Below are positions 869 through 3,954 of a DNA stretch of 4,239 bases, in pieces. Every line of letters begins with the position of its first letter. Position 1 is the first letter of the stretch. The notes under the pieces are model-generated. The model had not been told where the DNA came from, searched no databases, and worked only from the letters and a program-made list of their open reading frames with translations. The translations under genes were made by a program, and so were the position numbers. This DNA is from a virus (lineage: Duplodnaviria > Heunggongvirae > Uroviricota > Caudoviricetes), in IMG/VR virus record IMGVR_UViG_2582580933_000014. The stretch is one strand, 5' to 3'.

Positions 869-877
869 TGTTATAAT
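869..877 (+). promoter_or_regulatory. Candidate extended -10 promoter element (TGtTATAAT) for the moron gene at 915
   Basis: TG at 869-870, consensus TATAAT at 872-877, downstream of the terminator and 38 bp upstream of the ATG at 915. No good -35 was seen, which extended -10 promoters can tolerate. Confidence 0.3.
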
Positions 878-914
878 GTTTTCTGTAAAACAACATTAAA
901 AACAGGAGAACATT

Positions 915-1184
915 ATGAAACTGACCTCTATCCATCTTGAAATACTACGTCGAGTGAATGAATTGCAGCCAAAGGATTCTAGAATTCAGGCTGCATCATT
1001 ACCTCATCTCTCAGCAAAAGAGGTTAATTTTGCTATTTCAGATCTTGCTGATATAGGTTTTATCGATGTTATACGAAGCAAATCTGCCGAAGGTGGATTG
1101 ATTGCTAATGAGATAACGTCAAAAGGTTTTGCTTTTTTGAGTGAGATTGGCGCTGAAAAAAATTCATCGATGAGCACTCATTGA
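915..1184 (+). CDS. Small (89 aa) hypothetical protein with a winged-helix-like pattern; possible DNA-binding regulator
   Basis: ATG at 915 preceded by a strong Shine-Dalgarno AGGAGA (903-908). No transmembrane segment. Alternating hydrophobic periodicity (HLEILRRVNEL ... LSAKEVNFAISDLADIGFIDVIRSKSAEGGLIANEITSKGFAFL) resembles helix-turn-helix plus beta-wing, judged by eye. AT-rich composition unlike the flanking phage genes. Confidence 0.6.
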   Translation: MKLTSIHLEILRRVNELQPKDSRIQAASLPHLSAKEVNFAISDLADIGFIDVIRSKSAEGGLIANEITSKGFAFLSEIGAEKNSSMSTH

Positions 1185-1198
1185 TTTCTGCTTCAATC

Positions 1199-1216
1199 GG
1201 CTGCCAATTGGCAGCC
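1199..1216 (+). promoter_or_regulatory. Perfect 18-bp palindrome GGCTGCCAATTGGCAGCC (operator-like site or terminator-less stem-loop)
   Basis: GGCTGCCAA is the exact reverse complement of TTGGCAGCC. Lies 15 bp after the stop of the 915..1184 gene and is not followed by a T-run. Confidence 0.45.
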
Positions 1217-3565: not shown

Positions 3566-3954
3566 AGATGAGTTATTGGGCGCTCATTTTAACGTTTATT
3601 GCTTGTGTTGCTGGTGGTCTTGTCTGGTCAGCGAATCACTATCATGGAAAGTTTCTGGAGGAGCAGAAGCGTGCTGACGCTGCGGAACAGAGAGCTGATT
3701 CTACTGAGGCTATCACCGCGAATGTTCTGCGTACTATGGCAATAACGAACATCATTCAGGAGGCGAATCAACATGCAAAACAGCAGATCGCACTGGAGTC
3801 ACAGAGAACCCAGGAATATATCAAAGTGGCTGTTGCGAGTGATGATTGCGCTTCACGTCCTGTGCCTGCTACCGCTGCTGACCGGTTGCGGAAGTACGCG
3901 GACAGTTTACGTGAACATTCCGGCGGCACCACTGCCAGCCAGCCTGACTTCTGA
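3562..3954 (+). CDS. Rz-like inner-membrane spanin (i-spanin)
   Basis: ATG overlaps the endolysin stop (ATGA at 3562-3565). 130 aa with an N-terminal transmembrane helix (YWALILTFIACVAGGLVW) followed by a charged, Gln/Ala/Glu-rich helical periplasmic domain; sits in the Rz position after the endolysin. Confidence 0.8.
   Translation: MKMSYWALILTFIACVAGGLVWSANHYHGKFLEEQKRADAAEQRADSTEAITANVLRTMAITNIIQEANQHAKQQIALESQRTQEYIKVAVASDDCASRPVPATAADRLRKYADSLREHSGGTTASQPDF

Follow-up and report, generated by a model that had tools for sequence, protein, structure and literature searches.

A small winged-helix gene in the Q-to-holin slot of lambdoid prophages: a probable moron with an unusually conserved predicted promoter

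A stretch of 4,239 nucleotides (nt) from the IMG/VR virus record IMGVR_UViG_2582580933_000014, termed the window here at its full length, carries a small gene for an 89-residue winged-helix protein between the late antiterminator gene Q and the first holin gene. Positions 846-1216, which hold this gene, probably represent a classical prophage moron, that is, a mobile cassette of low guanine-cytosine (GC) content that lambdoid prophages carry between the terminator tR' and their holin gene. Morons are extra phage genes with deviating GC content and with their own promoter and terminator (Cumby, Davidson & Maxwell 2012, PMC3594210). The parts of the present one would be an extended -10 sigma-70 promoter, a single small gene and an intrinsic terminator. 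The genes, promoter block, leader, spacer and hairpins described below are given on the + strand.

The order of the window is Q, tR', cargo, two holin genes, a glycoside hydrolase family 19 (GH19) endolysin gene and Rz/Rz1. GC content is 30-39% in the cargo region (700-2250), compared with 47-53% in Q and the lysis genes. Within 700-2300, only 700-830 is common (about 82%) to 246 other Escherichia coli prophages, and in relatives the cargo between the conserved neighbours is replaced. Prophages of like order carry a 111-residue gene (SCU-122) or a 261-residue gene (ET791 and SCU-105), and the same Q-holin frame in two further loci (L031 and L034; loci carry L numbers throughout) holds a protein of 200-226 residues without an assigned function, an N6_N4 DNA methyltransferase and a membrane-protein gene that also occurs in the window. 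A terminator of its own follows the gene in homologous loci, the first copy in the window being without a T-run.

Distribution and genomic address

The whole window matches a prophage segment in E. coli F9792 at 100%. At 99% identity or more, the segment 700-2300 recurs in 41 of the 5426 complete E. coli genomes and in 12 viral contigs of IMG/VR; no near-identical DNA to this segment was found in sequenced phages. The host prophage adjoins tRNA-Thr, downstream of proBA, and combines a lambdoid early and late layout with Mu-like tail genes. Outside the lineage of the window, the winged helix-turn-helix (wHTH) gene was recovered at 36 loci in Citrobacter, Klebsiella, E. coli strain 1943, one metagenomic contig and IMG/VR. 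The homologs from Citrobacter and Klebsiella prophages and from the metagenomic contig are 28-58% identical.

At all loci recovered, the gene is the immediate neighbour of Q and its terminator on one side and of the first lysis gene on the other. Its neighbours belong to three unrelated Q families (PF03589, PF06323 and a DUF1133-type) and to at least four holin families. Because the address is constant while the Q and holin neighbours vary, the cassette appears to move as a unit. In the prophages of E. coli E3 and MS20649 (L006 and L007; locus 734-1501), most of the early region has been lost and Q is a truncated pseudogene, while the wHTH, membrane-protein and lysis genes are still intact. 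The persistence of both cargo genes beside a truncated Q fits Q-independent maintenance.

The gene and the predicted fold of its product

The open reading frame (ORF) at 915-1184 runs from an ATG at 915 to a TGA at 1182-1184 and is preceded by the Shine-Dalgarno (SD) sequence AGGAGA at 904-909, 5 nt ahead of the ATG. RefSeq annotates it as WP_000779379.1, it has a PHROG family of its own (phrog_32916, E 3e-61), and its homologs are under purifying selection, with ratios of nonsynonymous to synonymous substitution rates (dN/dS) of 0.09-0.63; for these three reasons it can be taken as a real gene. The original prediction, made from the letters of the window, had described this ORF, the AGGAGA, an extended -10 element (TGTTATAAT) after tR' and a palindrome without a T-run, all of which are present at the positions given. 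It had also ranked the AGGAGA as the strongest SD sequence in the window, a rank that has to be shared, as the AGGAGG of Rz1 at 3758-3763 is equally good.

A word-indexed single-sequence protein search returned near-identical copies only. Exhaustive searching of 1.84 billion representatives with HMMER yielded two genuine small homologs; its matches also included five large repeat proteins (leucine-rich-repeat and surface-repeat proteins), which were judged spurious after two of them had been read. Profile searching brought in about 20 clusters of proteins of 78-83 residues, nearly all from Citrobacter, and tblastn added two Klebsiella phages. The resulting family alignment has the pattern xxTV(N/D)FAISDLAxxGLV, followed by a beta hairpin and by ITSKGxxYL.

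Structure modelling confirms the winged-helix prediction that had been made from the sequence: as modelled, the product is a minimal MarR/PadR-like winged-helix domain, consisting of a helix, a helix-turn-helix, a beta-hairpin wing and a C-terminal helix, and related to DUF2513. AlphaFold2, given the family alignment, produced a model with a mean predicted local distance difference test score (pLDDT) of 83 and a predicted template modelling score (pTM) of 0.74, in which helices span residues 5-15, 26-28 (short), 34-46 and 69-84 and strands span 50-54 and 62-67. All of the top 50 Foldseek neighbours in the Protein Data Bank (PDB) are wHTH regulators of the MarR, PadR, HxlR and MecI types, with template modelling scores of 0.5-0.66, and a search of BFVD with the same model returned uncharacterised viral wHTH proteins only. 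At the sequence level, the family profile aligns over its full length with the wHTH core of the MarR protein 3f3x (residues 33-107, E 0.002), and DUF2513 is matched by 20 of the 21 family members (best E 2.5e-7).

Two points weigh against too close an assignment. The structure and sequence similarity scores are all weak, the Foldseek E values being 4e-3 or higher, and the window protein itself scores 21.8 bits against DUF2513 (E 2.4e-4), below the gathering cut-off of 29.6. On its sequence, the window protein would be a distant relative or a borderline member of DUF2513. Membership in MarR proper, which calls for about 140-150 residues, dimer-interface helices at both the N- and C-terminus and a Pfam score over threshold, was rejected: at 89 residues only the core aligns, the dimerisation helices are absent, and MarR_2 is matched by 1 of 21 members (E 0.076). 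A survey of the literature found DUF2513, a domain of no known function, in one unrelated paper and nothing on WP_000779379 or on a winged-helix moron between Q and holin; the family of winged-helix moron proteins is previously undescribed.

A conserved predicted promoter block

The gene is preceded by a conserved promoter block at 846-877, which ends in the extended -10 element TGTTATAAT (869-877), about 35 nt beyond the hairpin and T-run of tR' (807-833). In all homologous loci examined, TGnTAnAAT lies 30-36 nt 5' of the start codon. Between the E. coli and Citrobacter lineages, 29-30 of the 32 nt of the block are identical (91-94%); the same comparison gives 56-66% identity for the coding DNA, in which synonymous sites are saturated (dS > 1), and about 55% for the leaders. 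The sequences flanking the block, tR' on one side and the leader on the other, differ among lineages. The consensus of the block is (T/C)TCAATCTAC(A/G)TCAAAATCAA(T/A)(G/A)TGTTA(T/C)AAT, and in the 5426 E. coli genomes it occurs exclusively 5' of the wHTH family (42 of 42 matches).

Comparison of the loci thus supports a dedicated, Q-independent promoter, in agreement with the original prediction of a promoter of the gene's own past tR': the element is kept in every locus, beside three Q families. The comparison also shows that constraint reaches beyond the -10 element. Candidates for what constrains 846-868 are a regulator site, a site for integration host factor (IHF) or a recombination joint. 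In the window, only AATCAATGTGTTA at 861-873 matches the IHF core consensus WATCAANNNNTTR (0.28 expected by chance per window); it overlaps the extended -10 element and is conserved in three lineages; this putative IHF site is a post hoc lead.

Some observations count against the promoter assignment. The motif TGNTATAAT occurs once in the window, with 0.26 expected by chance per window, and at least one copy appears in 49 of 200 shuffles, so that its occurrence is not significant alone. The -35 region is poor and does not account for the strong conservation of 846-868. Moreover, the promoter, the start site and the efficiency of the terminators are read from sequence and comparison.

Two further candidates near the block were set aside. 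A scan of species-representative genomes with the block sequence TCAATCTACRTCAAAATCAA gave five matches in unrelated metagenome-assembled genomes, none extending into TGTTAYAAT or the gene; they were put down to chance and the scan was considered uninformative. A 12-bp inverted repeat that flanks the gene (860-871 and 1176-1187) is not conserved in homologs and was also deemed chance.

The palindrome as a probable relic of a terminator

Beginning 14 nt past the stop codon, a perfect 18-bp palindrome (GGCTGCCAATTGGCAGCC, 1199-1216) folds as RNA into a stem of 7 bp and a loop of 4 nt; the letters after it, TAAACTGTAAAG, contain no T-run. The original prediction took it for an operator: a dimer of the 89-residue protein would bind the palindrome, together with a variant at 2222-2239, and either autoregulate or control the downstream membrane-protein gene in a layout like that of a defence island. 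The wHTH fold suits such a role, as do the perfection of the palindrome and its lack of a T-run; when the window was shuffled 2000 times by single nucleotides, a perfect palindrome of 18 bp or more arose in 38 of the shuffles (1.9%). Furthermore, the palindrome separates the two genes and precedes a promoter-like site (1250-1277) by 34 nt, and the genes occur together in 16 of 16 loci of the lineage of the window. This reading is nevertheless extremely unlikely once homologous hairpins are compared.

The 2222-2239 variant (GGCTGCCAAATGGTGGCC) is real, as had been predicted. It contains two G·U pairs and is followed by the T-run TTTTTTATT, so that 2222-2248 has the appearance of a functional intrinsic terminator. 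Both a GC stem-loop and a U-tract are present in this copy and in all homologous copies. By the same criteria the 1199-1216 copy is not an intrinsic terminator: the stem-loop is present (centroid energy of the RNA, -14.9 kcal/mol) and the tail UAAACUGUAAAG is not a U-tract. The 2222-type element closes the cargo slot ahead of the holin gene in many prophages, and phage HK639 carries an annotated terminator at the matching site. A GC hairpin with a T-run lies downstream of every wHTH homolog; in Citrobacter-type loci it is the same hairpin, GGCTGCC-ATTT-GG(C/T)GGCC, followed by TTTTCTATTT or TTTTTTATT.

In total, 14 hairpin variants were collected from behind wHTH homologs or other cargo genes, the 1199 copy of the window included. 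A T-run stands behind 13 of the 13 others and is missing only in the 1199 copy. That copy, with its fully Watson-Crick stem, is also the one that forms a perfect DNA dyad, which none of the 10 other tabulated variants does; all ten pair T4-G, and some also pair G5-T or T3-G. Such G·U pairs hold in the + strand RNA and are mismatches in the DNA dyad and in the - strand RNA. The loops vary (AATT, AAAT, ATTT, ATTC, ATAT, AAGT, TTCT and ATCT). At the same place in the Klebsiella phages and in L020, whose proteins are 35-37% identical, there are unrelated hairpins, each with a T-run (CCTCGC-TTCG-GCGGGG and GCCTCAGC-CTGC-GCTGGGGC). Conversely, the GGCTGCC hairpin and its T-run also stand behind unrelated cargo in prophages that have no wHTH gene (L002/L003 and L031-L036).

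Because the structure is kept and the sequence is not, because pairing is strand-specific and because a T-run follows, the hairpin is best read as an intrinsic terminator and not as an operator. An operator role was rejected in that the dyad is not conserved with the protein and the hairpin is present where the gene is absent. The 1199-1216 element itself appears from its sequence to be a copy of the terminator stem of the cassette that has lost its T-tract.

The membrane-protein gene and a proposed second insertion

The second cargo gene, at 1394-2188 with a RefSeq start at GTG 1394, encodes a protein of 264 residues whose N-terminal alpha/beta domain is soluble and whose C-terminal part has about three transmembrane helices, and the AlphaFold2 model shows the N-terminal domain with confidence together with the helices. 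No convincing structural neighbour was found for this protein, which has no Pfam or NCBIfam match and no tblastn match in phage genomes, and the 261-residue cargo protein of ET791 has no homology to it. Homology to other loci with the membrane-protein gene spans 1345-2319 at 82% and takes in the right-hand hairpin. The stretch 1217-1344, outside this homology, is a lineage-specific spacer and contains the promoter-like site TTGATG-16-TATCAT (1250-1277).

A simple state of the locus is found in L016 and L024, where the order is promoter, wHTH gene, hairpin, T-run and the same holin gene, and where the stretch leading from the T-run into the holin gene can be aligned to positions 2240-2312 of the window. 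The two hairpin copies of the window form an imperfect direct repeat (D4, 84%; 1199-1216 and 2222-2240), and a similar TCAAT... stretch precedes each. From this arrangement we infer that a module comprising the spacer, the membrane-protein gene and its own copy of the shared terminator was joined immediately 3' of the wHTH stem, with 1199-1216 as the left junction, and that the first U-tract was removed in the process.

The two genes were found together at 16 loci, all of one E. coli lineage that is at least 99% identical, whereas the wHTH gene occurs without its partner at 36 loci and the membrane-protein gene at 10; a six-frame profile search confirmed these counts. Dedicated control of the membrane-protein gene, which the original prediction had suggested, is thus not supported, as the two genes never occur together outside that single lineage. 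The suggested likeness to regulators of defence islands fares no better, as PADLOC gave no match for either protein at E <= 1. Both results weigh further against the palindrome as an operator.

They bear equally on a broader proposal, in which the two genes would make up one functional operon in the E. coli lineage, for instance a sensor or regulator with a membrane effector in abortive infection. The first hairpin lacks a U-tract, and read-through into the membrane-protein gene is plausible; moreover, the 41 genomes of E. coli and the 12 contigs of IMG/VR given above keep the pair intact, the prophages with truncated Q included, and a small ORF of wHTH-like pattern stands upstream of a membrane-protein homolog of 51% identity. 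However, since all pairs are at least 99% identical they represent one evolutionary event, the gene families are independent elsewhere, and the two genes stand 209 nt apart, across a spacer that contains a promoter-like site of its own. In addition, no known defence family is matched, and the small ORF has no significant family match. A single operon is therefore very unlikely, and the view of two independent cargo genes stacked in one slot is preferred.

The small ORF just mentioned, of 66 or 73 residues, occurs in L037 (2096-2296) and L038 (2188-2409) and has a winged-helix-like pattern (...ISEGCCQLILTQLVMAGLAV...). Hidden Markov model (HMM) comparison found it unrelated to the 89-residue family, and it had no significant Pfam match. 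In L031 (2003-3941), L034 (1925-3806) and L038 (2541-3614), the gene for an N6_N4 DNA methyltransferase precedes the membrane-protein gene, an arrangement that could be another cargo system of the Q-holin slot.

The leader and late read-through transcripts

The 5' leader of the wHTH gene (878-914), which includes the SD sequence, can pair with itself. The 9 nt right behind the -10 hexamer (878-886, GUUUUCUGU) can base-pair with the SD region (902-910), and in a read-through context the stem extends to 873-886 paired with 901-914, in both minimum free energy (MFE) and centroid folds. Such an anti-SD stem appears in the MFE and centroid folds of five lineages, with arms of differing sequence: besides the arms in the window there are GCCGC/GCGGC, CCUCUGGU/ACCGGAGG and a Klebsiella version. 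Equivalents were seen in L008, L012, L016, L029 and L059-L070. The duplex has a p value of 0.006-0.03 per lineage in lineages A-C; set against random 10-mers, the pairing gave p values of 0.006-0.014 in three independent lineages. Since transcription is expected to start about 7 nt past the hexamer (about 884-887), the 5' arm would be present only in transcripts from the late promoter pR'.

On this basis, the sequence suggests that translation is blocked on late read-through RNA by the anti-SD stem. Two points tell against the pairing. In the Klebsiella and L020 lineages it does not reach significance (p 0.16 and 0.28), and a column-wise covariation test is inapplicable because MAFFT places the 3' arms out of register, the spacing between SD and ATG being different; per-lineage duplex statistics were used in its place. 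A possible LexA box in the leader (CTGT...ACAG) was rejected, as its spacing is 15 nt and not 8 and as it is not conserved.

The cassette might then work as follows. In a lysogen, its own promoter would fire, with a start near 884-887, and the resulting mRNA would have an unstructured, A-rich leader in which the AGGAGA is free. The 89-residue protein would then act in trans. The first hairpin, without its T-run, would most likely serve as a leaky or 3'-stabilising hairpin, and the 2222-2248 copy would terminate transcription of both genes. When Q instead drives read-through from pR', the 9 nt past the -10 element would pair with the SD sequence and translation of the wHTH gene would be blocked. 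The product would thus be specific to lysogeny.

Such an outcome would be analogous to the control of certain transposons. Fold-back inhibition in IS10 and IS50 reportedly shields transposase translation from read-through transcripts (Davis, Simons & Kleckner 1985). Here too, sequence upstream of the gene's own start would pair with the ribosome-binding site, so that only outside transcripts are blocked; unlike the transposon case, the present one is drawn from sequence, and the outside promoter would be the phage late promoter pR' under Q.

DNA or protein as the target

The fold makes DNA binding the default expectation for the 89-residue protein, yet this expectation is uncertain. Each of the 21 family members is acidic, with isoelectric points of 4.5-6.9 and net charges of -7 to 0, and in all 21 the putative recognition helix carries a net charge of -2 to -4 and the wing one of -2 to +1. 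By comparison, the wing of the aligned MarR protein 3f3x has +3, as counted by eye from the profile alignment. A basic recognition helix and/or wing, the criterion for a DNA-binding wHTH protein, is not found in the family, and the acidic helix and wing would be atypical of DNA-binding winged helices. These charges weigh against any DNA target, the palindrome included. Sequence-specific DNA binding by the protein is consequently a serious possibility that falls a little short of being probable; its best candidate site would be the conserved promoter block (846-877) or sites beyond the window.

A protein-binding role is possible too, if somewhat doubtful. In its fuller form, this alternative keeps the same cassette and has its product bind a host protein, or one of a superinfecting phage, instead of DNA, for example as a superinfection-exclusion or host-modulating factor. 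The acidity of all 21 proteins, with a negative recognition helix and a wing that is not basic, is consistent with it, as is the family alignment, in which the start of helix 3 (positions 33-36 and 38) is variable and the buried core is conserved. Likewise, the predicted late translational block would suit a product that harms lytic growth, and morons often encode exclusion factors (PMC3594210). On the other hand, all close structural neighbours are DNA-binding regulators, the conserved TSKG turn and N-terminal Lys/Arg are typical backbone contacts (by our own reading of the alignment), there is no candidate partner protein, and the co-conserved promoter block could be the operator of the protein. 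Taken as a whole, this alternative is unlikely.

A more elaborate version is quite unlikely. It holds that these proteins are lysogeny-only factors gated twice, once by a constrained promoter, possibly regulated by IHF or by the protein itself, and again by the anti-SD stem on late transcripts, and that the acidic product binds a protein, for example excluding superinfecting phages or tuning a host factor. Such a product would have to stay off while its own prophage goes through the lytic cycle. The moron cassette remains the preferred reading whichever target its product has.

Relation to known systems

The cassette resembles the morons of lambdoid phages, such as HK97 gene 15 and lambda bor and lom, in being an extra gene of deviating GC content, set between two genes that in related phages adjoin each other or enclose other cargo, with a terminator of its own and a predicted promoter that would serve expression from the repressed prophage. 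It differs from these in that its product is predicted to be a cytoplasmic winged-helix protein and not a membrane or exclusion protein, in that its terminator is split by a second cargo module, and in that its promoter block is far more conserved than its gene. The protein shares with MarR, PadR, HxlR and DUF2513 proteins (HTH clan) the succession of helix 1, helix 2-turn-helix 3, beta wing and helix, as well as the pattern xxTVxFAIxDLxxxGLV...ITxKG. Unlike MarR, it consists of a core of 79-89 residues only, with no N- or C-terminal dimerisation helices and with an acidic helix and wing, and it scores below Pfam thresholds.

The hairpins are like the slot-bounding intrinsic terminators exemplified ahead of the HK639 holin gene, with a 7-bp GC stem, a 4-nt loop and a T-run before the holin module, the stem being kept through G·U-tolerant and compensatory changes. 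The 1199-1216 copy departs from them as a relic with no U-tract and a fully Watson-Crick stem.

Phages that carry Shiga toxin (Stx) genes have them between Q and the lysis cassette. The present cassette occupies the same slot as stx and other lambdoid cargo, past tR' and before holin, where expression from an own promoter or by Q-dependent read-through is possible; unlike stx, it encodes a small putative regulator and not a toxin. Further context for cargo between Q and the lysis genes is available (PMC3430580).

Several consequences follow for the reading of such loci. What looks like an island of regulator, operator and effector would instead be two independent cargo genes stacked in the Q-to-holin slot, which tidies the annotation. 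A family of small winged-helix morons would be present in Escherichia, Citrobacter and Klebsiella prophages at a fixed address and behind an unusually conserved promoter. A shared terminator hairpin could serve as a junction for exchanging and stacking cargo modules, and occlusion of the SD sequence in read-through RNA alone would be a simple route to confine a gene of the late operon to lysogeny. Should the product indeed turn out to exclude phages or to modulate the host, its gene would be present in about 0.8% of sequenced E. coli, many of them poultry isolates or avian pathogenic E. coli (APEC).

Borders of the slot and minor observations

The left border of the slot is formed by the 3' part of Q (1-700; Pfam PF03589 Antiterm, E 5e-49; phrog_127). 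The gene begins 5' of the window and its stop codon is at 698-700, where the 753-nt "antitermination protein" of RefSeq ends. The tR'-type intrinsic terminator, at about 807-836 in a terminator scan, consists of an 8-bp GC stem-loop (807-826) followed by a T-run and folds with -14.8 kcal/mol (z = -4.9). Rfam and tRNA scans of the window gave nothing above threshold.

The right border is the first lysis gene, a PF16931 holin gene at 2297-2683 identified by Pfam, PHROG and RefSeq, with the second holin, GH19 endolysin and Rz/Rz1 genes downstream. Between the T-run of the terminator and the SD sequence of the holin gene lies an inverted repeat, CCTCTCA-N10-TGAGAGG (2248-2272). Other prophages that share this holin gene keep a shorter form of it (CCTCA-TTC-TGAGG), and the repeat may form a structure in the leader of the lysis transcript. 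In related prophages, a gene for a GrlR-family regulator is found right behind the lysis cassette (L002, 4978-5298; L029, 4301-4621), and this site is another cargo slot with a putative regulator.

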